Assembly: GCA_965214605.1 (NCBI GenBank)
Contig: OZ243961.1
Location: 3,840,001 to 3,904,000 of the forward strand
Length of the DNA: 64,000 nucleotides
Source of the DNA: an uncultured Candidatus Binatia bacterium
GTDB taxonomy: Bacteria; Desulfobacterota; Binatia; Bin18
Direction: 5' to 3'
Shown here: positions 29,042 to 49,981 of the stretch, in pieces
How the letters are laid out: each line of letters begins with the position of its first letter
How positions within the stretch are numbered: the stretch's first letter is position 1
The notes under the pieces: model-generated
What the model was told of the DNA's origin: nothing
What the model saw: the letters and a program-made list of their open reading frames with translations, nothing else
Databases searched by the model: none
Position numbers and translations under genes: made by a program

Positions 29042-31322
29042 TCATTCATCATCTCCGACAGCGGGTGTTTTCACCAAGCTTTCCATCGCTTCAAAATGTT
29101 CGAGGTCCTGCGTCTTCATAAAGTCGAGGATACTCTGAAGCACTGGACGCGCTTCTGCAAGTGACGACAGGTCATGCTCCGGCTCACCGATGAAATCGCT
29201 GTGGGAATACGTGTGTACGAACCGTATAATTCGCGTTTTCGCAGCTTCGTCGAATTTTATATCTTTCAGCTTGTTCCACAACTCGCCAGACGCTCGGGGC
29301 TGGCGGAACGCAAGAAACCCTTCCAAAAGGCGACGGGCCATATTTGGCAGTATGTAGTTCTCCTCAAGTGCTATTGGTGACGTGGCTTGCGCTTCCAAGT
29401 AGATACGGGAGAATAGATAGTGGTACTCCGACTCGTATCGCTCAAGAAGTCGATCAAGAGGACACAATTCCGAGAAACGCCGGGCTCCGTTGAATCGCCA
29501 ATCAAGCATGTAAAACCGCGCCGGCCTTACATTGACATCCCGCTTCCTTTGCCCCTTCAGATGGTGAAACCAGTTCTTTACATGTCTGAAGAAGGTAAAG
29601 TTGTGAGTGAGAATGAAAAGTTGCGCCACATCTTGTGTGCGCTGTTGTATATAACCGAAGGCTAAAAAGAGCGCATTAGCGTCAAGGCTAGAGACAGGGT
29701 CGTCTAGCACTACTACGCCCTTGGACGAGTCAAAGCCCCGGTCTTGCAGGGACTTCAAAAAGTAGAGCAAGGCGATCGCCGTGTTTTCCCCCTCGCTCAG
29801 GGCCTGCGCCTGTTTGCCATTTCGCATGATCGCATATCCAGTGTCCTTGACAGCAAGCTGGAGCTCACCATGTCCTAGATATCTGTGTAGATCCTGATTG
29901 AGTTCTTCGGCCGGCCTCTGATGCTCGGTAATATCGCGCTCAAGCTCCTTGATCTGCTCCACAAAATGCTTGACATCTCTGTCTGCTCGTGCAACATCCA
30001 ACTGGGCATTGTTCTCATCGTTCACCAGTCGATTGAAGTCCTCCAGGGTTTCCGCGACTGAATTAGCCTCCAGGCGTTCTCTTGCCCGTTTGACTTGTGT
30101 CTCGAACTCGTCGCAAGCGCTATTATGTTTCCGTACCGCTTGATTCACACTTTCGAGGATTTCCGGCGGCATCTCTGGTACAGGCGTGTCGAGCATGTAA
30201 CTTTCGAAGGCTCGCCCCTTCTTTCGTTTCACTTCTTCCACCAACGCATCGAGTAAGGCTTTCCCAGTCTTCGACGCTTCAATAAGCTTACCCTTAGCGG
30301 TCTCATATTCCCCGGAGAGTTCTTCGTGGAAGTCGCTGGAATACGGTAACTCCATTAGTTCCGACTGCTTCGCCGCCTTCTCCAACATTTCAAGTTGGTT
30401 GTCCAAGCTTTTGAGAAATTGCTCATACTCGTCGCTAAAGTGGGCCTCAAGGTCTCGCATACGGTCTCTCGGCAACGCTTGGTCACAGAAGAGGCAGCGG
30501 TCCGTATGACGCTCCTGGTGCAAGCCGCGTCCTTGATATACCCATAAAGAGAGGGCCTGGCCGTCCTTCAGTGGTTGGATCACAGCGGACACGACGGTCG
30601 TCTCAAGCAGACGCGAGACTTCCTTTGCGTGCGTTGACAGCACGGGAAGCTGATAAGCGATCTCAGAAATTTTTGCTTTTGGTGTTGACCGATGATGCTG
30701 CCGGAGAAGCTTCTCGCGCTCACTATCGCTGAGACGAGAGCTTGTCGCAGCACCCGAGCTCACCATCTTCTCTGCGCACTTCTGATAATGGGACTTATTA
30801 TAGTTATTGTACCGACTTGAAGCAGACGATCTCAGCATATCCTTAATCGCCTTTGCTCGGTCGATGCAATGCTGGTCTTAAAGCCTTGGCGGCAGCGTCA
30901 TTGGCTGACCGAGCTTCTTGCAGCGTAGCTTCCGCAACTGCGCGGTTCTCCTTGAGACGCTCTATTGCCTGTTGCTTCTCAACACTATCCTTGCCGAGGA
31001 CCAAAATCTGAGCCATATCACCGCCCCCAGCCGGGAAGACATTGTCCGACACAAAGTCCCGATTGAACACGCGAACTGGTGTGTTTATTTGCTCGAAATC
31101 GGAACCCTTGACATTCCTTCCCTTGATGGAGAGATCAACATCAAACTCCACGGGCTTCCTCATCTCCAGAGCCTGAAAGAGTCTGCTGATTGTTGTCTTG
31201 CCAGACCCATTCCAGCCATAGATTAAATTGTAGCGCCCAAAGCTAGCCATGTCTGTTGGCCACCGGAAATTGCGAAGCATTCCAGGGTACTCCAATTTCT
31301 GAATCTTTTCTATCAGGACCAT
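29042..31322 (-). pseudogene. rloC: RloC-like AAA_13 ABC ATPase/HEPN anticodon nuclease, one frameshift near 30880
   Basis: GWNGSGKTT, CLFC zinc hook in coiled coil, LSEGE, VVLDDPVSSLD, LTHN, RRLLE and RFVHTYSH; removing one base gives a ~759-aa ORF. Confidence 0.82.
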
Positions 31323-32425: not shown

Positions 32426-32886
32426 TATTTATCCTCCCCCGATAAGGCAAGAGCGGGTAACGCGGATGGGCTTCTGGATAAAGGACAGTACTTCAGCCAT
32501 CAAGAGTGGTGGCTCAATTCATCCTCGCCACCGACCCTGCCCACCCCGCCGCCCTGGGCACTGCTCGGCCTGGTCGCTGGGCGCTAGTCTGTCTTTTGCG
32601 TTCCCCCCCGCCTTGGTAAAGCTGCTCGAAAATCCAGAACAATACGTCCGGCTCAAAGAGTTGCTTGCGGCTAAGAACTGAATGATTTATCTCCGGCTGC
32701 GCCGCCCACCTAGTGGCGGTTTCTTCGGACCTGGCCGCCCCACAAAGGCGGCCTTCCTCCGCATCCCGCTCCGGCCCGGTAGGGGTGGCTTGGTGTCACC
32801 TTGGACACGAAGCCGGGGGCGGCCTGCTCCTGGAGGCCTGCGCGTCCAGGAGCGCGGCGGCTACCGGCGGAAACCCCAAAATTAGG

Positions 32887-32994
32887 CGCGGCGGCAGGAC
32901 TTGAACCTGCGACCTTCTCGCCCATACAATGTCGGTTGTCACTCTACATCGTATGTCGAAAACGAGATGCTCTATCCGTCTGAGCTACGCCGCG
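32887..32994 (-). ncRNA. tRNA-like RNA with extended anticodon arm (copy 1)
   Basis: Acceptor CGCGGCG/CGCCGCG, D arm GCTC-AGACGGATA-GAGC, stem TCTCG/CGAGA, inserted 10-bp hairpin, T arm GCAGG-TTCAAGT-CCTGC; no encoded CCA. Confidence 0.8.
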
Positions 32995-33009: not shown

Positions 33010-33501
33010 TTATTTCACTGCCTTTAACCGAGGAATCCGAGGTTTGCCTTTACGGCTCCGTGTGGCCTCGTCCTCCTGTTTCCGCTGCTCACGTTGCTCC
33101 AGCTTTTCCGCAGCGTACCCGGAGGCTTCTTTAATGAGGCCATCGAGGTGATAAATATTCGTCCGACTCCCTCTCCCGGGTATTCGCCGTTCTTCACGCC
33201 GAATCAAGCCGTCCTGCTCCATGCTGGCAATCCGCCGCTGAATAGTTCGCGGCGTGACCCCCATCGCGTCAGCGATGGTTTTTTTTGACGGATACGGCTT
33301 TTGGTCCTTGGTCCACCAATAATCTGCGAGGTGCAGCAGGATGTTCAGGTCAAGAGCATCAAGGCCCAGTGCCTGCTGGCGTTCAACAAACACGGACGGA
33401 AACCCTATCCAGCCCGCGTCCATGAGTGGTTTGGTCCATTTCTCTTCGTTCACTTTGAGGTTTTCCCTCGGCTGTTTTGCTGCGGAATTTTGATTCTTCA
33501 T
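33010..33501 (-). CDS. Winged helix-turn-helix protein (HTH_36-like)
   Basis: YPSKKTIADAMGVTPRTIQRRIASMEQDGLIRR...NIY. Confidence 0.75.
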   Translation of the reverse strand: MKNQNSAAKQPRENLKVNEEKWTKPLMDAGWIGFPSVFVERQQALGLDALDLNILLHLADYWWTKDQKPYPSKKTIADAMGVTPRTIQRRIASMEQDGLIRREERRIPGRGSRTNIYHLDGLIKEASGYAAEKLEQREQRKQEDEATRSRKGKPRIPRLKAVK

Positions 33502-33852: not shown

Positions 33853-34071
33853 TCAGCCAGGTTTGACGGGGGTTTCCGCCGGTGGGTCGAGCGGGATGCA
33901 GGAGCGCCGTAGCAGCTCGGCTAAGACTTCGCCTTGTCGCTCAAGCGCGTCCCCTTGGCGGCGCTGGGCGGCCTCCATCGCGTCCAGTTGGCGGTTGCGC
34001 TCCTGGGAGGACACCCGCAGCTGCCACAAGCCCCAGGCAATCAAGAGCAGTTGCCCGCCAACAAGGGCCAA
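33853..34071 (-). CDS. Small TM/coiled-coil peptide family member
   Basis: TM segment then ALERQGEVLAELLRRS; start uncertain. Confidence 0.6.
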   Translation of the reverse strand: MALVGGQLLLIAWGLWQLRVSSQERNRQLDAMEAAQRRQGDALERQGEVLAELLRRSCIPLDPPAETPVKPG

Positions 34072-34170
34072 GGTGCGCGGGCGGGCGGGCCGTTCGGATT
34101 GGGGATTTTTAAGGATGTCATAAGATCGCGCCGCGTCCCCCGCTCTCGCGGGGGCGCATAATAAAGGCGG

Positions 34171-35067
34171 CTATTTCTCGTCCTGGCTGTCCATGCCGAG
34201 AATATAATCGGCTGCCCGTTGGGCCTGGGAAGCGGCCTGCACAAGCAGCCGCGGGTCATCGCGCAACCTTTTCAACCAGCCGCGGATATAGCTCACGCTG
34301 GTGTCCGTCGTCCGGTTGTCAATCCCAGCCACCCCACACAGGAAGGCCGCCCCCATTTCCGCCACCAGCTCTTCTTTGCTGTAGTTGGTATCGCCGAAGC
34401 GGCCCGCGTCCACCACCCCCGGCCGATTCAACCGCCCGGCATGGCCGGTCGCATGGGTCAGCTCGTGAAAGAGGACGGAATAATACAGCTCCGGGGCCTC
34501 GAAGCTGGACGCCTCCGGCATGGTCACCTGGTCCACGCTCGGCCGGTAGAAAGCCGAGTCTCCCCCGTGCGTAATCGCCGGCCTCCCTGGCATGTCTGCA
34601 ACGATCTTTTCGCAAGCGCCAATTTTCAGGACGGGGTCAATGGCCCGCTGCTCCACCTTCGCCCGCTCCGCCCACGCCGGGGGCAGTTCGCATTGGGTAG
34701 CGTTGAACACCGTATAGGCGCGCGCCACAACCTACCCTCTCCGCGCCGCCCGTTCCTCGCCGGCGTCCTGCTGCTCGTCCTGCGCGCCCCCCTTCCGGGC
34801 CATGTATTTCCAGAACATAACGCCGGTGCCTTTCGCGCCTTTTTTGACGTACCCGCCAATCTGCCCGGCTTGCCGGTAGGTCAACCAGAACGGGGAGCCC
34901 CCTTGCCCGGCCAGCAACCACACATTCAGCCCCCGGTACGGCTTCCCGCTGATGAGAGTGCGCGGCGCGCCCTCGGCCGCGGTCCACGGGCGATGCCCCG
35001 GCACCACCCCGGCTTTGAGGGCGGAAACGATCCGGTCAGTAATTGTCGTGTACACGTCCGGGCTCAT
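34171..35067 (-). pseudogene. ardC: ArdC-like antirestriction protein (DUF1738 + zincin-like), frameshifted (copy 1)
   Basis: SGKPYRGLN, WLTYRQA..GG.VKKG.KG, FHELTHATGH..RLNR, YSKEELVAEMGAA. Confidence 0.88.
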
Positions 35068-35084
35068 TTGGGCCTCCTGCTCTC

Positions 35085-35580
35085 CTTGAAAAAACAAATG
35101 ATTTTTTCGGTTCTCACCACCTGCTCGGACCGAAAAAAATCAGAGAGTGGCCCGCAGGGCGCAGGGGTGCGTCCGCCGGCGGCCATTCAGCGAGGCGTGA
35201 CAGGTTCGCGGAGCGGGGCTGGCGCGTATTGCGGCCGGTAGGCGGCGCGCGGTCTTAGTCCTGGCAAGTGGCTGCCAGGGCCTTTTGTGGTGGCCTCTTG
35301 CCCGGTCTTTGGGGGGGGGGCGGTGTGGCCCTCTACACGGACCCCCCCGCCCAGCCGGGGACGGGGTGGCTCTGTGGGTTCGTCCCACTGAGCTGGCGGC
35401 GTGGCCAGGGCAATCCGGGGAGGTAGGGAAAGAGTGACCGCCGTGAACACTCCCTCAAGGGAGGTGTGGAGGGGAAAAGAATCGCCCAGGGCGACCTTGC
35501 TCAACGCCCCGCTCGGTTGCGCGCGGGGCCATCCGTATCCGGTTGGGCCGGGCGTGACCCCGCCCGGCGGGGGATTTGGA
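35085..35580 (-). repeat. Conserved non-coding leader upstream of ardC (copy 1)
   Basis: Long blocks shared with 43300-44000. Confidence 0.8.
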
Positions 35581-35584
35581 GGGG

Positions 35585-35855
35585 TTAGGCGGTGCGGCGG
35601 AGCAGCTCGGCCAAGACTTCGCCCCGGCGTTCGAGCGCCGCGCCGGTCGGCCGCCTCCCCCTGTTTTCTGAACGCCCCCGCCCGCTCATCAATTTCCCGG
35701 GCGCGCCGGGGGCCGGCTTCCCCCATCCGCTTCAATCCCACCAGGATCGCAAAGCGCCCCCCACCACTGACCGCAAGCTGGGCAATCTCTACCCAGCGCG
35801 GCCCCTGGAGCGCCTCGGCCGCCGCCTGCGTCACCCGTAACAATTCAGCGTCCAT
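35585..35855 (-). pseudogene. Small TM/coiled-coil peptide family member, frameshifted
   Basis: MDAELLRV..ALQGPRWVEIAQL, then shifted ALERRGEVLAELLRRTA. Confidence 0.65.
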
Positions 35856-36052
35856 CCTGGCCTGCTGCCGGACGAAATTTGCGCGCCCGGAAAGCAAAAA
35901 CAGCGGCGCCGCAGTCCAGGGCGGCGGAGCGGCGAAGCGCAGCGGAGTGGACCCTTGACGGTGGATTCTTTTTGCTCCGCTGACAAGCGCCAGGCAGGAA
36001 GGCAGAAAAAAAAGGGCGCGGGGCCTGGCCCGCCGCCTTCCCGCCCCCCGCC

Positions 36053-37023
36053 CTAGATATGAATCCGCTCGATTTCATCCAGCGAGACTTCGTTCGGCAA
36101 GCGGTTGTAGAGCTGCGTCGTGCGAGTCGATTCATGCCCGGCAATGCGCGCCGCCGTCTCCAACGTCCCGCCCGCCCGCAGATATTCGGTAATGCCCGTG
36201 CCCCGGAAGCTGTGGGCGCATATCTTCGCCGGCAACCCCGCGCGGCGCGTGCGCCGCTTAATCATCTTCAACGCGTCGGCCCGGTCCATCGGCCGGCTGG
36301 TAAGCCGGCCCCCCGCGCCCGGCCGACGGAAACAACGGGCCTTGCGGATTGGCCGCCAGGCCTGCGCGGTCTATGTAGTCATCCGTCCAGGCTTGCGCCA
36401 TGTGGTGCGCGGGAAGGACCAGATACTTGCCGCCCTTCTCGTGCAGCCGAAAAAAGGACCGCTTGCCCTGGGTGTAATAGTCCGCCACCCGCATCGCCAG
36501 CGCCGCGCTGATGCGCGCGAAGCCGTACACCATCAGACCCAGCAGCGCCCGGTCCCGCAACCCGATCAGCGGGGCGGGGTCGATACGGTCAAGCAGGCCC
36601 CGCGCTTCTTCCGCCGTCAACACGGGGGTCTTGCCCGTTTTGACGACCTGTTTCGGCCCGCGGACCGCCCCGGCCGGATTACTCCGCAGGACCTGGCCCA
36701 CGACGAGCCAGGCAAAGAGCTGGCGCAAGGCGGCCAGATTTTGCTTGACCGTGGCCGGCGCATACGCCCGCCCGAGCTGCTTGATGTAGCGGGTCACATG
36801 CAAGGGCTCGACCTGGGCCAAGCGGAGCGCCTGGGCCTCGCACCAATCCGCGAAGCGGAAGGCGGCCGTGACATACGCCATCCGAGTATTGGGATTGCGA
36901 ATGTTGGCCCCAAAACCGCCGCGCGTCCTCGCGCGTCTCGACAAAGAGCGCCGGCGCACGCCCGGCCGCAATCCGCCGCCGAATCGCCGCGGAAGGCGGC
37001 CGCTCCGCTATTGATGTGTCCAT
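36053..37023 (-). pseudogene. XerC/D-like tyrosine recombinase, frameshifted (copy 2)
   Basis: R (GFARIS), K (HEKGGK), HSFR, AGH, TQLY catalytic residues. Confidence 0.9.
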
Positions 37024-41838: not shown

Positions 41839-42382
41839 AGCCTGGACATACGTCGCCCACAGGCCGGCCCGGCTTATTTCCAGTGAAGCACTTTGAAAAG
41901 CAGTAGTCGCGGCTTCAAATTCCGTCATGGTTTCGTTTTCTCCTATCCCTCGTCTTTCGTCAAGATTGCCGGGCTATCGCCGGTCGAGGGGGTCGAGCCG
42001 GGCGAGTCCCAGCGGGTGTCCCTCGGGGTCTCTGCTCTGCGTGGCCCTCAGCGCGCCGCTGCTTTTTGCAAGCGGCCCAAGTCGCGGCTTTGCCGGCCCT
42101 GCTCAAAACGCCAGATTCGGCAGGGTCGAGCGAGCTTCTGCATCGGGCCTAGGCCGCGGCCCGCGGGCAATGCGGCCACCGCTAACAGTAGCAAGCAGCC
42201 GTCCCCGCTCCTTTTCAGACCCGGTTTCACCGCCCGCCCAAGAGCGGATTGTCCGGCTACGCCGCCCACCTAAAGGCGGTAGGAGACTTCGGGGGCGGGG
42301 CCGTTCGGATTGGGGACTTTTAAGGATGTCATACGATCGCCCCTTCTCCCCCGCTCTCGCGGGGGGCGGGTCATAAAGCCGG

Positions 42383-43283
42383 CTATTCCTCGGCCTGGCT
42401 GTCCAGGCCGAGCATATAATCGGCGGCCCGCTGGGCCTGGGAAGCGGCCTGCACCAGCCGCCGCGGGTCATGGCGCAACTTCTCCAGCCACCCGTGGATA
42501 TAGCCGGCGCTGGTGTCCGTCGTGCGGTTTTCAATCCCCGCTACCCCACACAGCACCGCCGCGCCCATCTCGGCGACCAGCTCCTCTTTGCTGTAGTGGG
42601 TATCCCCGAAGCGGAGCGCGTCAACCAGCGTCGCGCGATTCAGCCGCCCGGCGTGGCCGGTGGAATGGGTCAGCTCATGAAAAAGGGTCGAATAGTACCG
42701 CTCCGGGGCCTCGAAGCTGCCCGCCGCCGGCATCGTCACCTGGTCAACGCGCTGCCTGTAAAAAGCAGCATCCCCCCCGTGCGTGATAGCCGGTCGGCCT
42801 GGCATCTCCGCCACGATCTTTTCACACGCGGCGATTTTTTGGGCGGGGGGCCATGTCCGGCACACCCACCTGCGCTCGCTCTGCCCACGCCTCGGGCAAT
42901 GCGCATTGGGCGGCGTTGAACACGGTATACGCACGGGCCACGGCATAGCCGCCCCGCTCTTTGCGGCCCTCCTCGCCGTCCTGGCGGCCGTCCAGCTCGC
43001 CACCCTTGCGGGCGAGGAATTTCCAGAATATGACGGGGTGGCCTTTTGCCCCTTTTTTGACGTGGCCGCCTATCTGCGCGGCGTGCCGGTAGGTCAACCA
43101 GAACGGCGACCCCTCGTGCTGATGCGCCAGCAGCCAGACATTGACGCCCCGGTACGGCTTGCCGCTGATGAGATTGCGCGGCCGGCCCTGGGCGGCGGTC
43201 CACGGGCGATGCCACGGCACCACCCCCTCGCGGAGGGCGGATACGATGCGAGCGGTGATGCTCGCGTACACGTCCGGGCTCAT
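42383..43283 (-). pseudogene. ardC: ArdC-like antirestriction protein, frameshifted (copy 2)
   Basis: VPWHRPW, SGKPYRGVN, FHELTHSTGH, YSKEELVAEMGAA. Confidence 0.88.
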
Positions 43284-43299
43284 TTGGGCCTCCTGCTCT

Positions 43300-44000
43300 C
43301 CTTCACAACACAGATGCTTGTTTTCGGTTCTCACCACTGCCCGGACCGAAAACAATCGGAGAGCAGCCCGTAGGGCGCACGAAACCGAGTCCGCCGCCGG
43401 CCGGCGCATCCGTGCCAGGTTCGCGGAGCGGGGCCGGCGTGCGATGCGGCCGGCCGGCGCGCCATACTGGAGCCGAGGCCATCAGCTAGGTGTGCTAGGT
43501 TCGCGGAGCGGGGCTGGCGCCGCTTGGCGGCCGGGAGGCGGCGCGCTGTCTTGGGCGTGGCAAGGGGCGACCAGAGCCTGCTGTGGTCGCCCCTTGCTCG
43601 GTCTTCGGGGGGGGGTGCTCGGTGTGGCCCTCTACACGGAGCGGCGGGCAGCGCGGGCGGGCGGGCCGCGGACCTGGGCACCAGCGCGCCCGCCCGCGCG
43701 GCAGGTCCTGGGGGGGGGCCCCGGCGCTTCTCCTGGCTTGGGCGGGCTCTGTGGGTTCGTCCCACTGAGCTGGGGGCGCTGGCCCGCGTGGTCGGTGATG
43801 CGGACCTGGGCACGCCGGCGACGTGGGCCAGCGCAATCCTGGGAGGGAGGGAAAGAGTGACCGCCTTGAACGCGCCCTCAAGGGAGGTGTGGAGGGGAAA
43901 AGAATCGCCCTGGGCGACCTTGCGAAGCGCCCCGCTCGGTTGCGCGCGGGGCCATCAGGACACGGCTGTACCAGGCCTGACCCCGCCCGGCTGGGGGACA
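43300..44000 (-). repeat. Conserved non-coding leader upstream of ardC (copy 2)
   Basis: Matches 35085-35580; aggttcgcggagcggggc internally duplicated. Confidence 0.8.
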
Positions 44001-44004
44001 GGGC

Positions 44005-44238
44005 CTAGGCGGTGCGCCGTAACAGCTCGGCGAACACTTCCCCCTGGCGTTCGAGCGCCTTGCCCAGCACGTCAATTTCCTTGTTGCGACGTTCGCCCGC
44101 GGCCTGCATCTGGAAGAGCCCCCAGACAATGCAGCCCAAGCCTACGCCGCTGACGAGAAGCTGGGCGATCTCTACCCCGCGCGGCCCCTGCAGCGCGGCG
44201 GCCGCCGCCCGCGCCAACGGTAAAAATTCAGTTTCCAT
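44005..44238 (-). CDS. Small TM/coiled-coil peptide family member
   Basis: VSGVGLGCIVWGLFQMQAAG..ALERQGEVFAELLRRTA; GGAGGA RBS. Confidence 0.7.
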   Translation of the reverse strand: METEFLPLARAAAAALQGPRGVEIAQLLVSGVGLGCIVWGLFQMQAAGERRNKEIDVLGKALERQGEVFAELLRRTA

Positions 44239-44413
44239 ACCGTCCTCCTGCCGGACACACAAAGGCAGGAAGCATCTGCCCTAAAGAATAGCGCCCAAAG
44301 GGCGAACCTTACAGGCCGGTTTTCCGGCCGCGCCTAAAGTGTGCTTTTGGAGATGGAGGAAGCGGGGGACACGTAATTCTCATCCTAGCTATGTTGTTAG
44401 GAACCGAGAATCA

Positions 44414-44734
44414 ATGGTACTGAAGCCAGTGTTTGTTGAGACAATCCCGCACTTACCCGAAATGGAAGAGGGTACACTTTACGTCAGCATGAGGTTCGCC
44501 ACCCTTTCCCATTTATGTCCATGCGGGTGTGGTCGTTTGGTCGACGTGACGCTGGACCCTGCGACTCGTAGTCTGACCTACGATGGTGAGTATCTAACCC
44601 TAAAACCTTCGATCGGGGTCAAGTTCCCATGCAGAAGCCATTACTCGATTATTCGGAATGCGATCATGTGGTACCCGCCGATCTCGAAATCGGAAGGCAG
44701 GTGGTACAACCGTGTTTGGGAGAGATGGAGCTAG
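44414..44734 (+). CDS. DUF6527-like protein
   Basis: GTLYVS, HLCPCGCG, TLKPSIG..CRSHY.I. Confidence 0.75.
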   Translation: MVLKPVFVETIPHLPEMEEGTLYVSMRFATLSHLCPCGCGRLVDVTLDPATRSLTYDGEYLTLKPSIGVKFPCRSHYSIIRNAIMWYPPISKSEGRWYNRVWERWS

Positions 44735-44768
44735 ACAAAGACATCGGTCAAGAAACGAAGCGCGAGAT

Positions 44769-44878
44769 CGCGGCGTAGCTCAGACGGATAGAGCACCTCG
44801 TTTTCGACATGCAATGTGAGGGATGACAACCCGCATTGTATGGGCGGGGAGGTCGCAGGTTCAAGTCCTGCCGCCGCG
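44769..44878 (+). ncRNA. tRNA-like RNA with extended anticodon arm (copy 2)
   Basis: Acceptor, D and T arms identical to copy 1; stem CCTCG/CGGGG; inserted hairpin CATGCAATGTG/CGCATTGTATG. Confidence 0.8.
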
Positions 44879-45026
44879 TCCCCACCGAAAGTGCAAACAT
44901 TTCTTCGTAACGGTGATACCGCGTTGTTCTTCTGCCATGGGACTCCTCCTTGGGGGGTGGGGGGCGGATACATCAGGAAACCGCTGTGCCGGGCGTGACC
45001 CCGCCCGGCTGGGGGACGGGGAGGGG

Positions 45027-45302
45027 CTAGGCGCTACGCCGTAACAGCTCGGCTAAGACTTCGCCTTGCTGGGTGAACGCTTTGGTCATGGCTTCGCCTT
45101 GCTGGGTGAGGGCCTTGGTCATGGCTTCGCCCTGGCGTTCGAGCGCTTGCCCCTGCTGCTGGAGGCCCTTCCCCAGCTCATCAATTTCCCGGTCGCGGCG
45201 TTTACCGGCCGCCTGCATCTGGAACAACCCCCAGACAATACACCCTAAGCCTACCACGCTACTGAGCGTCTGCACCCACATCGCCACGATTTCGTGGTCC
45301 AT
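45027..45302 (-). CDS. Small TM/coiled-coil peptide with 11-aa tandem repeats
   Basis: QGEAMTKALTQ/QGEAMTKAFTQ then QGEVLAELLRRSA. Confidence 0.72.
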   Translation of the reverse strand: MDHEIVAMWVQTLSSVVGLGCIVWGLFQMQAAGKRRDREIDELGKGLQQQGQALERQGEAMTKALTQQGEAMTKAFTQQGEVLAELLRRSA

Positions 45303-45485
45303 ACCGTCCTCCTTCCGGACAACATGTGCGCACCCGGAAAGCAAAAAAAGAGGCGCCGCAGTCACGGGCGGCGGAGCCGTGCATTTTCCCCTTGACTGTG
45401 GCGTCTTTTTGCTACGCTGGAAAGAGCCAGGCAGCAAGGCAGAAAAAAGAGCGGGGGGGCGTAGCGGAGCCCTGGGCCGCAGGCC

Positions 45486-46473
45486 CTAGATATGAATCCG
45501 CTCGATCTCATCCAGCGAGACCTCCTCCGGCAAGCGGTTGTAGAGTTGCGTCGTGCGGGTCAAGGCATGGCCCGCGATACGTGCCGCCGTCTCCAGCGTG
45601 CCCCCCGCCCGGAGATATTCGGTAATACCGGTGCCCCGGAAGCTGTGCGCGCAGACCTCAGCCGGCAACCCGGCACTCTTCGCACGCCGCTTAATCATCT
45701 TCAAGGCGTCGGTCCGGTCCATCGGCCGGCTGCTGAGGCGGTCAATACCCCGCTGTGTGCCAGCAGAGGGAAACAAGGGGCCTTTCGGGTCGGCCGCCAG
45801 GCCTGCGCGGTCTATGTAGTCATCCGTCCAGGCCTGCGCCCTATGGTGCGCGGGAAGGACCGGATACTTGCCGCCCTTCTCATGCAGCCGGAAGTAGGAC
45901 CGCTTGCCCTGGGTATAATAGTCGGCCACCCGCATCGCCAGCGCCGCGCTCACCCGCGCAAAGCCGTACACCATCAGGCCCAGCAACGCCCGATCCCGCA
46001 GCCCGATCAGCGTGGACGGGTCGATACGGTCAAGCAGGCCCCGCGCTTCTTCCGCCGTCAACACGGGGGTCTTGCCCGTTTTGATGATCTGTTTCGGACC
46101 ACGGACCGCCCCGGCCGGATTACTGCGCAGGACCTGGCCCACGACGAGCCAGGCAAAGAGCTGGCGCAAGGCGGCCAGATTTTGCTTCACCGTGGACGGC
46201 GCATACAGCCGCCCGAGCTGCTCGATGTAGCGGGCGACATGCAAGGGCTCGACCTGGGCCAAGGTGAGGGCTTGCGCCTCGCACCAGTCCGCGAAGCGGT
46301 AGGCCGCCGTGACGTAGGCCAGCCGGGTATTGGCATTGCGGATGTTCGCCCCAAAGAACTCCCAAAACCGCCGCTGGCCCTGGCGTGTCTCGGCAAAGAG
46401 CGCCGGGGCGCCCCCCCCCGCAATCCGGGCCGAAATCGGCGGGCGGCCCGCTTTCCACGATGTGCATCGTCAT
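45486..46473 (-). pseudogene. XerC/D-like tyrosine recombinase (copy 3); catalytic domain intact, N-terminal frameshift
   Basis: R-K-HxxR-H-Y residues in ORF 45486-46262; N-terminus in another frame. Confidence 0.9.
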
Positions 46474-46589: not shown

Positions 46590-46792
46590 TCGGCCAGCTC
46601 CTGGAGGCCTGCCCGTCCAGGAGGAACAATAGGCAGGACTCTTTTCCGCTCTGGCCGCTCGGGCCGGAAGGTGGACGGGCGACACCGGGGGAGGGTCGGC
46701 CAGGCTCGAGTGTCCCATGCTCACCGGCTTCGATGCTCTGTTCCCCTCAAGACTTTAGATTGTTCAGTCCGGGGGGGGGCCGAGCGGGGCGG

Positions 46793-47075
46793 CTACGCGG
46801 AGTGCCGCAACAGCTCGGCTAAGACTTGGCCCTGCCGCTCAAGCGCTTGGCCTTGCTGTGTGAACGCCTGGGTCATGGCCTCGCCCTGGCGGCGGAACGC
46901 CGCGGCCAGCTCATCAATTTCGCGATCCCGCCGCTGGCCGGATTCCTTCATGCACGCCAACCCGATCAGGATCGCCGCAAGCCCCGTGCCGCTGATGCCA
47001 AGCTGGACCACCTCGACCCAGTTCGTGCCCCCTGCGGCCACGGCCTGCAACTGTAAGGCGGTGACCGCCTCCCGT
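46793..47075 (-). pseudogene. Small TM/coiled-coil peptide family member, 5' end cut by IS remnant
   Basis: WVEVVQL..RQGEAMTQAFTQQGQALERQGQVLAELLRHSA. Confidence 0.65.
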
Positions 47076-47735: not shown

Positions 47736-49144
47736 ACTGACTGCCTTTCCGCCAGTGCTAGGAGCCCGAGAGGTGGGGTGCTATCGCCCTTGCCGACATT
47801 GTCGGCTAAAATCTCGCAGAGCCCGTCTTCGGCATCATATATTAGCTCCATGCTCGTGAGGCTGAAGGTAACAGAGGCGTAGTTGTGATTCGGTCCTTCA
47901 CGGAACGGATGAAGTCGCGCTAGGAACTCGTTGACTGCGAGTGAGGCTGCGAACATGTTGACACTAATGACCGCGGGACGGTGTGCGGCCACTCCGGAAA
48001 TATAGCCGTCCTTCCTCTACTGTTCGTGTGCGGTCGGATCGTTGCGTCGCAGGCCCGCGGCAGCCACATCGCTCATAGTGAACAGGCCCCGACTCATCAG
48101 GCTTGATCGCCCAGGCTGCAGGTAGTGAATCGTGCCGCAAATTTCGTGAATATCCGCTTTATCAGTACCTCGCGGCATAGGTTTAAGCCGAACCCCGAGG
48201 TCGAAATACGGCAAGGTGTAATGCGTGGCGAGAACATTCAGCAGATAGCGGCCGTCGATGGTATCCATGCAACCGAATATGACGTCGCACTGCGCCACGG
48301 CACGCACAACTTCCGGATCCCAGAGATTCCGATTCATGCGGATGACCCGCGTCCCTAGACCCATACGTTCAATGGCGTCGGCCAGTACATCGACCTTGGC
48401 ACGGTTTTGCGCTATGTCTTTCAGTGTTGAGTTCAGAATGCGATTGACGTTGCGGTCTTCCATATGATCCTCATCGACGATTACGATCTCCCCGACGCCA
48501 AGCCGTACAAGTTGCTCGATAACAGGGCTCCCCGTACCCGAAGCGCCAATTACGGCAATCGATAAGCGCCGCAAGCGCTGAATAGTACCTTCATCGAATA
48601 TCTGGGCGTGTGAGGCTACGAAACTCGGTATGGCCACATCACCAGCAGCGCGTACCAGAAATGCAGATCATCGCCTGCGACGCTGATACACTCGACTGGT
48701 TCGAGAACGTTGCCGGAGCGAAGCACGCGCCCAAACATCTGCCCGTCGGGCAGTATAATGGCACTCCCGTGCAGGATATCGGCTTCGATACAGTCACGGA
48801 TCATCGGTATCAGCCGGGCATCGCCCTCATCGTCTGTTGCTGAAAAAGCGGGATAACCGGTCGGATGGCTATGTATCTTGATAATCGAAAAGCCTTCCTC
48901 GGTTGAACGGTCCGGTACGGACGCGATGCAGTCGGGCGACCATGTCACGAGCGTCGGGGTTCTTCTTGAGCATTGATTATAGGGGATGCAGTGGATGTCG
49001 CGAACGGTCAGACGATGACGACGCTCACCAGCGCGGCTGGCGCAGAGGAGCAGGGCAACAGCCTCTTTACCATCACCAGGGAAAAAAACTTGTCAGACGT
49101 TCATACTGATCACCTGATAATGCAAGGGTTACCGGCGCGGTCAT
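47732..49144 (-). pseudogene. JAB peptidase-E1 (ThiF) fusion, BubCD-like
   Basis: HSHP..FS..DD JAB motif; GASGTGS, NVNRI, GCMD ThiF motifs; TAG at 48017 and frameshifts. Confidence 0.82.
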
Positions 49145-49515
49145 TTCTCGAACTCTCGTTCTAACCAGTCCTCAATCAACATGATATGCGTTCCCAGGTG
49201 GTCCTGGCCGATTTTCCACGAATTCTGCGGCGTGCGATGACGAGACCAACGCTGGTAGCTCTTCCCATCGATTTTCTGTGCTGCGTTAGTTGCACCTATT
49301 GGTTTGCCGTCTTTCCGTGCCAGAGCCGGGAAGAAGTAGACCATGTTCAGCTCCGTATTGGGGTAGCCGGTTTCCATGCGGATTGCCGCTGTAACAAGCG
49401 GATGGTTGTATCCTTCGTGTGTCTGGAACTCGTGAATCAGCACCCACTGAGAGCCATCGATAATGGTCTCCCAGTGGGTGCCATATTCGTCGAGAAACTC
49501 ACGGTCCTGTGAGGG
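49141..49515 (-). pseudogene. Prokaryotic E2-like protein (BubB-like), 5'-truncated
   Basis: GYN, GYP...MVYFFP.L.R.DG, YQRWSRHR...W; ATGA overlap with E1 gene. Confidence 0.78.
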
Positions 49516-49981
49516 AGATATCTTCTCACGACAGGCCGCAGATTCCGCTTTGGATATCAAGACTCCGCTCAAGCTCGCGAAAAAGTTCGGTGCCTCGCTC
49601 TATGCGTCGATACGCGAATTCGTCCGGACCAACCACAGGGCATGTGCTGTCTATGTCCTGGAGCCACTCAAATTTGTCGAAGGAGCGGGCGCACAGGCAG
49701 TGGTTCGGCGTATTGAAACTTCATCCGCGTTCATCACGCAGTTCGGGCAGCCTGCCGATACTGTGGTCACACCCGCCCATTCTCTGTGGCCGGTGATACC
49801 GATCAAACGCAAGATGGTCCGGCCCGTTTCGCTCTCTATTACCGACAAAAACGGTGAAGCCCACGAATGTGTCGCCGAGGCGTTCGACACCACCTATAAT
49901 GTCCTCATTTTACTCTATCCTGAAAAAGCACTCACGTCCAAGACGATTACACTCTCGCCGAGGTCAAGAGCCGGTTACTGA
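49512..49981 (+). pseudogene. C-terminal half of CapP/IrrE-like regulator
   Basis: LAKKFGASLYASIREFV helix-turn-helix then GAF-like region; HEXXH part missing. Confidence 0.6.

Follow-up and report, generated by a model that had tools for sequence, protein, structure and literature searches.

A bacterial family of tRNA-shaped RNAs with a conserved bulged hairpin in the anticodon loop

Viral RNAs, tmRNA, Y RNAs and mascRNA all provide known examples of tRNA mimicry. YrlA and the other bacterial Y RNAs combine a tRNA-like module with a long helical arm, have a permuted segment order and are partnered by the Ro (TROVE) protein. The mascRNA is excised by tRNA-processing enzymes, and the RNase P step of this excision at the same time generates the 3′ terminus of the RNA upstream. 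The regulatory CI RNA of P4 and C4 RNA of P1 and P7, all of them phage-plasmids, are small structured RNAs that RNase P cuts from operon transcripts of mobile elements, and they act via loops that are complementary to nearby target sites. In tRNA genes themselves, a study of Lak megaphages describes “enigmatic” short introns (Devoto et al., 2019; PMC6784885).

Here, we describe two tRNA-shaped RNAs encoded in a 64,000-nt stretch of DNA (the window) from an uncultured Candidatus Binatia bacterium, and the family to which they belong. In the full-text literature outside subscription journals, we found no description of this RNA, or of any bacterial family whose members are complete tRNAs with a tertiary fold, retained ends and CCA but have a conserved bulged hairpin set into the anticodon loop.

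Two tRNA-shaped RNAs in the window

The original prediction was a tRNA-shaped RNA with a hairpin grafted into the anticodon loop, in two copies at 32887–32994 and 44769–44878. These ends leave out the discriminator base. With this base included, copy 1 spans 32886–32994 on the minus strand (109 nt) and copy 2 spans 44769–44879 on the plus strand (111 nt). Both copies match the Rfam tRNA family (RF00005, gathering score 29) over model positions 1–71, with 54.9 bits for copy 1 and 50.2 bits for copy 2. Their scores with the covariance model R1 are 134.8 and 138.2 bits, respectively, and the predicted folds, together with alignments for copy 1, are in agreement. The Rfam model leaves 38 bases of copy 1 and 40 bases of copy 2 unaligned in the anticodon loop. 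Formally the RNA therefore does belong to a known Rfam family, but the match concerns the tRNA body only and the insert is not covered. No other Rfam family, and no intron family, was found at either copy even at a loose threshold. ARAGORN in default mode called no tRNA in the window; when introns were allowed, it called both copies as tRNA-Glu(ttc) with an “intron” of 35 nt and 37 nt, respectively, at position 39.

Each copy alone folds to a cloverleaf plus a hairpin (z = −3.7). Copy 1 has acceptor, D and T arms and an anticodon stem that is extended to 7 bp. On this stem follow a 5-nt bulge (TTCGA, 32956–32960), a hairpin of 10 bp with a 13-nt loop (32923–32955) and the dinucleotide GG (32921–32922). 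The layout of copy 2 is the same, with the bulge TTCGA at 44803–44807, the hairpin at 44808–44842 and GG at 44843–44844. The bases of the 7-by-2 internal loop that had been proposed are present in both copies, but they are better drawn as a 7-bp stem with a 5-nt bulge (NNCKA), as Y32 and U33 pair with the conserved GG and complete the 7-bp anticodon stem. We also found TTTTCGA, GG and TGACAACC in both copies, as described before, and CCA is encoded in neither.

The acceptor, D, variable and T arms are indeed identical between the two copies. The remaining stems differ at six positions in five pairs, all five of which are still paired, so that the claim of pairing kept despite the differences is confirmed. 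In the anticodon stem, pair 27-43 is changed on both sides, from T-A in copy 1 to C-G in copy 2, and pair 29-41 from T-A to T.G. In the inserted hairpin, three pairs are altered on one side only, via G.T. Covariation between the two window copies alone is weak, and the strong evidence comes from the 28–29 relatives presented below.

Among the 49 Rfam tRNA matches of the host genome (4.37 Mb, 99.99% complete), only the two window copies exceed 90 nt. An ordinary tRNA-Glu(UUC) is already present in this genome according to ARAGORN. In one metatranscriptome that shares a small part of its words with the stretch, 0 contigs mapped to it, and four other runs behave as DNA of the same organism.

Members and structure of the family

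A sensitive BLAST search of PLSDB detected full-length relatives of 101–107 nt on five proteobacterial plasmids, carried by Caulobacter sp. FWC26 (p1), Acidisoma sp. PAMC 29798, Xanthobacter dioxanivorans, Methylocaldum szegediense and Spongiibacter sp. IMCC21906. In addition, one genome per species was scanned for the D-arm and T-loop words at a distance exceeding that in ordinary tRNAs. At least 117 stretches matched, and 80 of these were scored with R1. The scores split cleanly into 28 RNAs at 63–138 bits and archaeal intron-bearing tRNAs at 58.5 bits or below. Besides the two window copies, the 28 RNAs comprise the five from plasmids and 21 from 19 genome loci. A covariance-model search of genomes had been proposed as a check of the original prediction; the 28 RNAs recovered at 63 bits or more, and the covariation of their insert, bear it out. 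Because the scan accepted only exact matches to the D-arm and T-loop words, their invariance at the 19 genome loci follows from the way in which these were selected. The same words are also present in the five plasmid relatives, which were found by BLAST without a word filter.

Among the matches listed, all members of the set from outside the window belong to Alpha- or Gammaproteobacteria. Elioraea tepidiphila DSM 17972 and Aminobacter ciceronei DSM 15910 are cultured carriers, as are Caulobacter sp. FWC26, X. dioxanivorans YN2 and M. szegediense. Four further relatives lie beyond the set of 28, including L259 and L230 on two IMG/VR viral contigs; a strict pattern gave 0 matches on viral contigs. 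In random samples the RNA was rare, being present in three of 101 Rhodobacteraceae genomes and in one of 150 further genomes of the same class, in each of which only 25 candidates were scored. BLAST found no full-length match in 60 relatives of the host, R1 found only ordinary tRNAs of 71–77 nt in 150 genomes of the host's class (including the unpublished genome G114), and the E. coli genome collection gave no match.

Other tRNA-like genes with inserts were seen along the way. A generic pattern matched at least 117 viral stretches in IMG/VR and, apart from L259 and L230, these were of other kinds among the matches listed. Several of the phage clusters have inserts of 40–50 nt after the D arm with the common word ACAGCAA. 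Bacterial tRNA-like genes of 118–127 nt with different inserts (L100, L083, L094, L117, L127, L081, L076) were found in Capsulimonas, Armatimonas, Nostoc (two in tandem), Deinococcus, Chloroflexia and Tenacibaculum (two copies), and some of them share an insert resembling CCTTGCC...GGCCGA...GGTTATCG.

The RNA had been predicted to be structurally selected, and the family alignments show that it is. In the alignment of the 28 sequences, which was fitted to the model, 97.7% of the cells contain standard pairs, and 23 of the 31 pairs change on both sides, including all 10 pairs of the inserted hairpin. None of 500 shuffles (0/500) reached the observed values, and sliding the partners by 1–3 columns reduced pairing to 35–51%. 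A second alignment of 29 sequences was made with MAFFT and fitted to no structure. From this alignment RNAalifold recovered the cloverleaf with the anticodon stem extended to 7 bp and missed the inserted hairpin, the variable sequence of which MAFFT had left unaligned. Here, the Levitt pair 15-48 is G-C in 19 sequences and A-U in 10, with 0 mismatches, a covariation that is hard to explain other than by the L-shaped fold of a tRNA. Within the hairpin G.U pairs are common (in one pair, AU occurs in 11 and GU in 8 of the 28 sequences), indicating that the sense strand is the one under selection. The RNA thus displays the hallmarks of a tRNA, namely the cloverleaf (97–98% of the cells paired), the 15-48 pair, the GG of the D loop and the T loop.

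The rebuilt arm consists of a 7-bp stem, one 5-nt bulge (consensus UUCKA) and a hairpin of 8–12 bp, and the folds contain no bulge-helix-bulge, as had been stated. C36 is found in 28 of the 28 RNAs, U33 in 27 and A38 in 24, and the two bases of the conserved GG in 28 and 27, respectively. Position 37 is G in 14/28 and U in 14/28. Some 21 of the 28 RNAs have the triplet UUC at positions 34–36 (T25, T21 and C28 by column); the others present UCC, GGC, AUC, GUC, UAC or UGC on the same tRNA-Pro-like body. The acceptor stem is nearly constant while the triplet varies, and the discriminator base varies too. A pyrimidine at position 37 and a varying triplet on one body are untypical of decoding tRNAs. 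The loop of the hairpin has a loose motif, YGRCANC. CCA is encoded exactly in 15/28 RNAs and with one base off in another 6/28. The nearest ordinary tRNAs are tRNA-Pro(CGG) in all 6 of the 6 top matches checked, which fits with the C1-G72 pair.

Genomic settings

Copy 1 lies behind a gene for a winged-helix protein resembling the DnaD N-domain and lambda O, which is on the same strand (minus, 33010–33501) and ends 15 nt before the RNA. The mechanically called ORF reaches 33657, and homology to relatives begins near 33501. The protein matches Pfam HTH_36 (7.6e-11) and DnaD_N (2.7e-07) as well as the PHROG “replication initiation O-like” (2.6e-12). Searching with a profile built from 12 homologues also gave the DnaD N-domain structures 2vn2 (1.2e-10), 2v79 and 8ojj. 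It has ∼165 residues and is named only “helix-turn-helix domain-containing protein” in the Atlas; some members of its family also match Pfam RP-C. The winged-helix proteins (alignment A8) have a basic C-terminal tail with a recurring P-K-L-x-L-V-like motif which, judged from the alignment, might serve as a peptide for docking to a protein of the host.

Across the family, the RNA begins 0–68 nt past the stop codon of a gene on the same strand. In 17/28 cases this gene directly upstream is the winged-helix gene, and a further two RNAs occupy the second place of a tandem pair in modules of this kind, so that 19/28 RNAs lie in a module headed by this gene. The viral contig of L259 has the same order of winged-helix gene and RNA. 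L102 and L139 share a winged-helix gene and two RNAs, and their homology stops 6 nt after the RNA. The other 9/28 RNAs have other neighbours, such as a MerR gene, DUF6527 (copy 2) or unnamed ORFs, and one of the winged-helix homologues is not followed by the RNA. The linkage is frequent but not obligatory. The placement behind the winged-helix gene is of note since the listed genes of the two smallest carrier plasmids, those of Spongiibacter (12.7 kb) and Acidisoma (13.3 kb), include no other replication initiator. We found no iteron arrays and no recurrent DnaA boxes, and the GC skew of two small plasmids was uninformative. A sigma-70-like promoter in the sense direction was not found before copy 1, copy 2 or L064, the three loci scanned.

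Six Rhodobacteraceae genomes (L112/L182/L306, L089, L086, L183/L319, L184 and L316) have the RNA on its own, with a divergent DUF1489 gene on one side and a ribonucleotide reductase (RNR) gene on the other. In L182 the 3′ end of the RNA is ∼25 nt ahead of the reductase start codon. The RNA was present at 3/30 sampled reductase loci. The original prediction that the RNA is carried by mobile DNA is largely supported by the plasmids, the islands with integrase or resolvase genes and the viral contigs, but does not apply to the fixed chromosomal site before the RNR gene of these six genomes. Skipped locus tags, for example between QP803_RS23845 and QP803_RS23855, suggest that annotation pipelines call an RNA gene there, perhaps under the name of a tRNA. 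With a dedicated model, the present family would be kept apart from both real tRNAs and archaeal-type introns.

The window contains two islands that are related and decayed, with 80–84% identity in self-BLAST. Island A (34083–36983) has a fragmented ArdC-type metallopeptidase gene at 34171–34728 and integrase fragments at 36258–36971, and island B (42293–46434) has an ArdC-type gene at 42383–43003 and an integrase at 45486–46262 (Pfam MPTase-PolyVal and Phage_integrase). Compared with island A, island B contains an extra piece of ∼1 kb (44256–45297) made up of DUF6527 and RNA copy 2. Copy 2 has no winged-helix gene; its upstream neighbour is the DUF6527 ORF (44339–44734, plus strand; Pfam 2.9e-16), which ends 34 nt before the RNA, and the integrase is 600 bp away.

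Several other features of the window were observed near the two copies. A repeat of ∼100 bp with the common sequence CGCCGTAACAGCTCGGCTAAGACTTCGCC occurs in five copies (33860–33975, 35530–35640, 43940–44060, 44960–45080 and 46755–46900), two of which lie on either side of the extra piece of island B. A perfect 15-nt inverted repeat (32863–32877 and 33869–33883) brackets the winged-helix gene and copy 1; two matches of this kind arise in 6/100 shuffles, and no similar repeat was found around other loci of the family. At 29042–31322 on the minus strand, 1.5 kb downstream of copy 1, an AAA_13 ATPase gene is broken into two neighbouring ORFs that differ in frame and match profile positions 6–125 and 152–712. 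Beside island B, a cluster encoding ThiF (E1-like), JAB and prokaryotic E2 family E proteins (48017–49572, minus strand) appears from its domains to be a ubiquitin-like conjugation set.

We found no partner of the hairpin. Its loop is not enriched in complementarity to the 900 nt upstream or the 800 nt downstream, where z centres on 0 and averages +0.24, respectively, and exact complements of 7–8 bases share no position. As a separate observation, the loop of the Elioraea-type loci L108, L115 and L080 is complementary to the codons of a conserved VPS motif in the upstream gene, and one pair of this complement varies as U.G, U-A and C-G. A general target at VPS codons was rejected, as other loci have no match at that site.

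Possible function and relation to known systems

Several known classes of RNA were considered and do not fit. The insert of 35–40 nt is, as had been claimed, too short for a group I intron, which has some 200 nt or more with a P1–P9 core, and Rfam shows only tRNA there. A pre-tRNA spliced by proteins as in archaea and eukaryotes does not agree with the lack of a bulge-helix-bulge or with the host, in whose genome tRNA_int_endo (PF01974) and RtcB (PF01139) gave 0 matches each while control genomes matched. Neither a splicing endonuclease nor RtcB is among the listed genes of the 12–13 kb carrier plasmids. For a Y RNA of the YrlA type bound by Ro60, the segments follow one another as in a tRNA according to the Rfam alignment and are not permuted, and TROVE has 0 matches in the whole host genome, which extends the absence already noted for the window. 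A tmRNA was dismissed as ARAGORN calls none in the window and the D and anticodon stems are intact. A canonical decoding tRNA does not have 35–40 nt inserted after position 38; in addition, position 37 is not always a purine and the triplet varies against one tRNA-Pro-like body.

The explanation that we favor, and to which we give an even chance, is that the RNA is a non-decoding mimic derived from tRNA-Pro that is excised from operon transcripts by the enzymes that process tRNA ends, and that it represents an undescribed family. We infer a mimic rather than a spliced decoding tRNA from the missing bulge-helix-bulge, the host without endonuclease and RtcB, U37 in 14/28 members and the varying triplet on a nearly constant acceptor stem. 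The core would fold as a normal L-shaped tRNA with the anticodon loop rebuilt as a bulged hairpin arm. The gene, placed within operons of plasmids and integrative elements, would be co-transcribed with its neighbours, and RNase P would cut at the 5′ end of the RNA and thereby also fix the 3′ terminus of the mRNA upstream. At its own 3′ end, the RNA would be trimmed to CCA or extended with it. The freed, stable RNA of ∼105 nt could then not decode, and its bulged arm may serve as a binding module for a partner, probably in the control of the replication or maintenance genes of the element. Some observations speak against this mimic. The winged-helix gene is not an obligatory neighbour (9/28 members have others, and six Rhodobacteraceae genomes have the RNA alone before the RNR gene), and the UUC triplet is mostly kept, which fits a spliced tRNA-Glu or a decoy too.

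A decoy, or spare substrate, by which mobile elements protect themselves against nucleases or other enzymes that attack anticodon arms would make the RNA an anti-defence or anti-toxin RNA. The carriers are mobile and the window copies lie beside ArdC-type genes, which are anti-restriction-like, but the chromosomal copies before the RNR gene of Rhodobacteraceae do not fit this role. The split gene of AAA_13, the PrrC family, is at a distance of 1.5 kb from copy 1, and Abi, Gabija-like and toxin-antitoxin genes are found near other loci; still, no defence or toxin gene is linked consistently, the winged-helix gene being the only recurrent neighbour. The UUCKA bulge retains letters of the anticodon loop, but the bulged helix does not offer the 7-nt loop of a real anticodon arm. 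We consider the decoy unlikely.

A real intron-containing tRNA, in most cases tRNA-Glu(UUC), would require an unknown bacterial route that removes the hairpin together with the GG and leaves the loop YUUUCKA. It is true that this removal would leave exactly 7 loop bases, and the intron call of ARAGORN at position 39 as tRNA-Glu(ttc) points the same way, as do UUC in ∼21/28 members, C36 in 28/28 and the encoded CCA in 15/28. Unexplained short introns have also been published for tRNA genes of Lak phages (PMC6784885). However, the arm is a single 5-nt bulge on a 10-bp helix and not a bulge-helix-bulge, the host lacks tRNA_int_endo and RtcB and none is listed on the 12–13 kb carrier plasmids, and an insert of 35–40 nt that matches no Rfam intron family is far below group I size. 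Furthermore, half of the members (14/28) have U37, other triplets occur on the same tRNA-Pro-like body without, for example, G3.U70, and the host already owns a tRNA-Glu(UUC). Taken together, a spliced tRNA appears quite improbable.

We are equally doubtful about a role at the level of DNA, either as a recombination or attachment site or as an antisense promoter that drives a counter-transcript into the upstream gene. A consensus scan shows a promoter-like site antisense to copy 1 (32901–32930, plus strand), with a −35 element TTGAAC, a spacer of 18 nt and a −10 element TACAAT; this is a consensus match only. The −35 element is the complement of the T loop and the −10 element that of the 3′ base of the hairpin. 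The promoter-like site could account for part of the conserved letters at the hairpin base. The same site is present in copy 2 (44864–44835, minus strand) and in L064. TTGAAC-N16-19-TAnnnT was found antisense to 16/28 members and to 0/17 ordinary tRNAs of the host, but these 17 controls have no insert and the comparison is weak. In Rhodobacteraceae the antisense direction aims at the divergent DUF1489 gene. An attachment site would agree with the homology of L102 and L139, which ends 6 nt beyond the RNA, and with the integrase 600 bp from copy 2, but an integrase is found within 3 kb at only ∼4/30 loci and the window contains no partial att-type repeat of the RNA 3′ end. The covariation with its frequent G.U pairs selects for the fold of the sense-strand RNA, and the tertiary covariation of pair 15-48 would be meaningless in DNA.

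A long shot at best is replication-linked punctuation, in which a 3′-OH made by RNase P on the transcript of the DnaD/O-like initiator gene would prime or license DNA synthesis of the element, with the same cleavage timing the RNR mRNA in Rhodobacteraceae and the freed CCA-tailed mimic informing the control of replication about the state of tRNA processing in the host; if true, it would define an RNA-primed or RNA-gated type of replicon that uses the tRNA maturation machinery.

Returning to the tRNA-Pro-derived mimic, its placement behind winged-helix genes and before the RNR gene points to a link between tRNA processing and the control of replication genes in mobile DNA, and the known systems resemble it to different degrees. 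Like YrlA, the present RNA joins a tRNA-like part to a long arm, but its segments are in tRNA order and its genome lacks TROVE. With the CI and C4 RNAs it shares the character of a small structured RNA of mobile elements, but a complement of its loop was found neither in the 900 nt upstream nor in the 800 nt downstream. With the pre-tRNAs that are matured by EndA and RtcB in archaea and eukaryotes it shares an insert in the region of the anticodon loop of an otherwise normal tRNA, and archaeal intron-bearing tRNAs are caught by the same DNA pattern, yet these score at most 58.5 bits compared with at least 63 bits for the family, which does not have their motif of a 3-nt bulge, a 4-bp helix and a 3-nt bulge. 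The inserts of Lak phages are similar in being short, not of group I and located in tRNA genes of bacterial mobile genomes with no known splicing route (PMC6784885). They come from Prevotella phages and affect several tRNAs, and the available text reports neither a conserved bulged hairpin nor a linked gene (PMC6784885). The phage inserts that we examined in IMG/VR are of other kinds than this family.

The mascRNA at the 3′ end of MALAT1 is likewise a non-decoding, tRNA-like RNA that ends a longer transcript (10.64898/2026.01.19.700226), and the present RNA may be processed in the same manner. The mascRNA differs in being eukaryotic, 58 nt long and without a long anticodon arm. The closest resemblance in sequence is to bacterial tRNA-Pro (RF00005). 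In contrast to tRNA-Pro, the present RNA has 35–40 extra bases after position 38, lacks G35 and G36, has G or U at position 37, varies in the discriminator base and is not called by ARAGORN in default mode. What it has in common with tRNA-Pro is the cloverleaf with C1-G72, the 9-nt D loop, the variable loop AGGUC, the T loop TTCAAGT, the covarying 15-48 pair and a CCA end that is often encoded.
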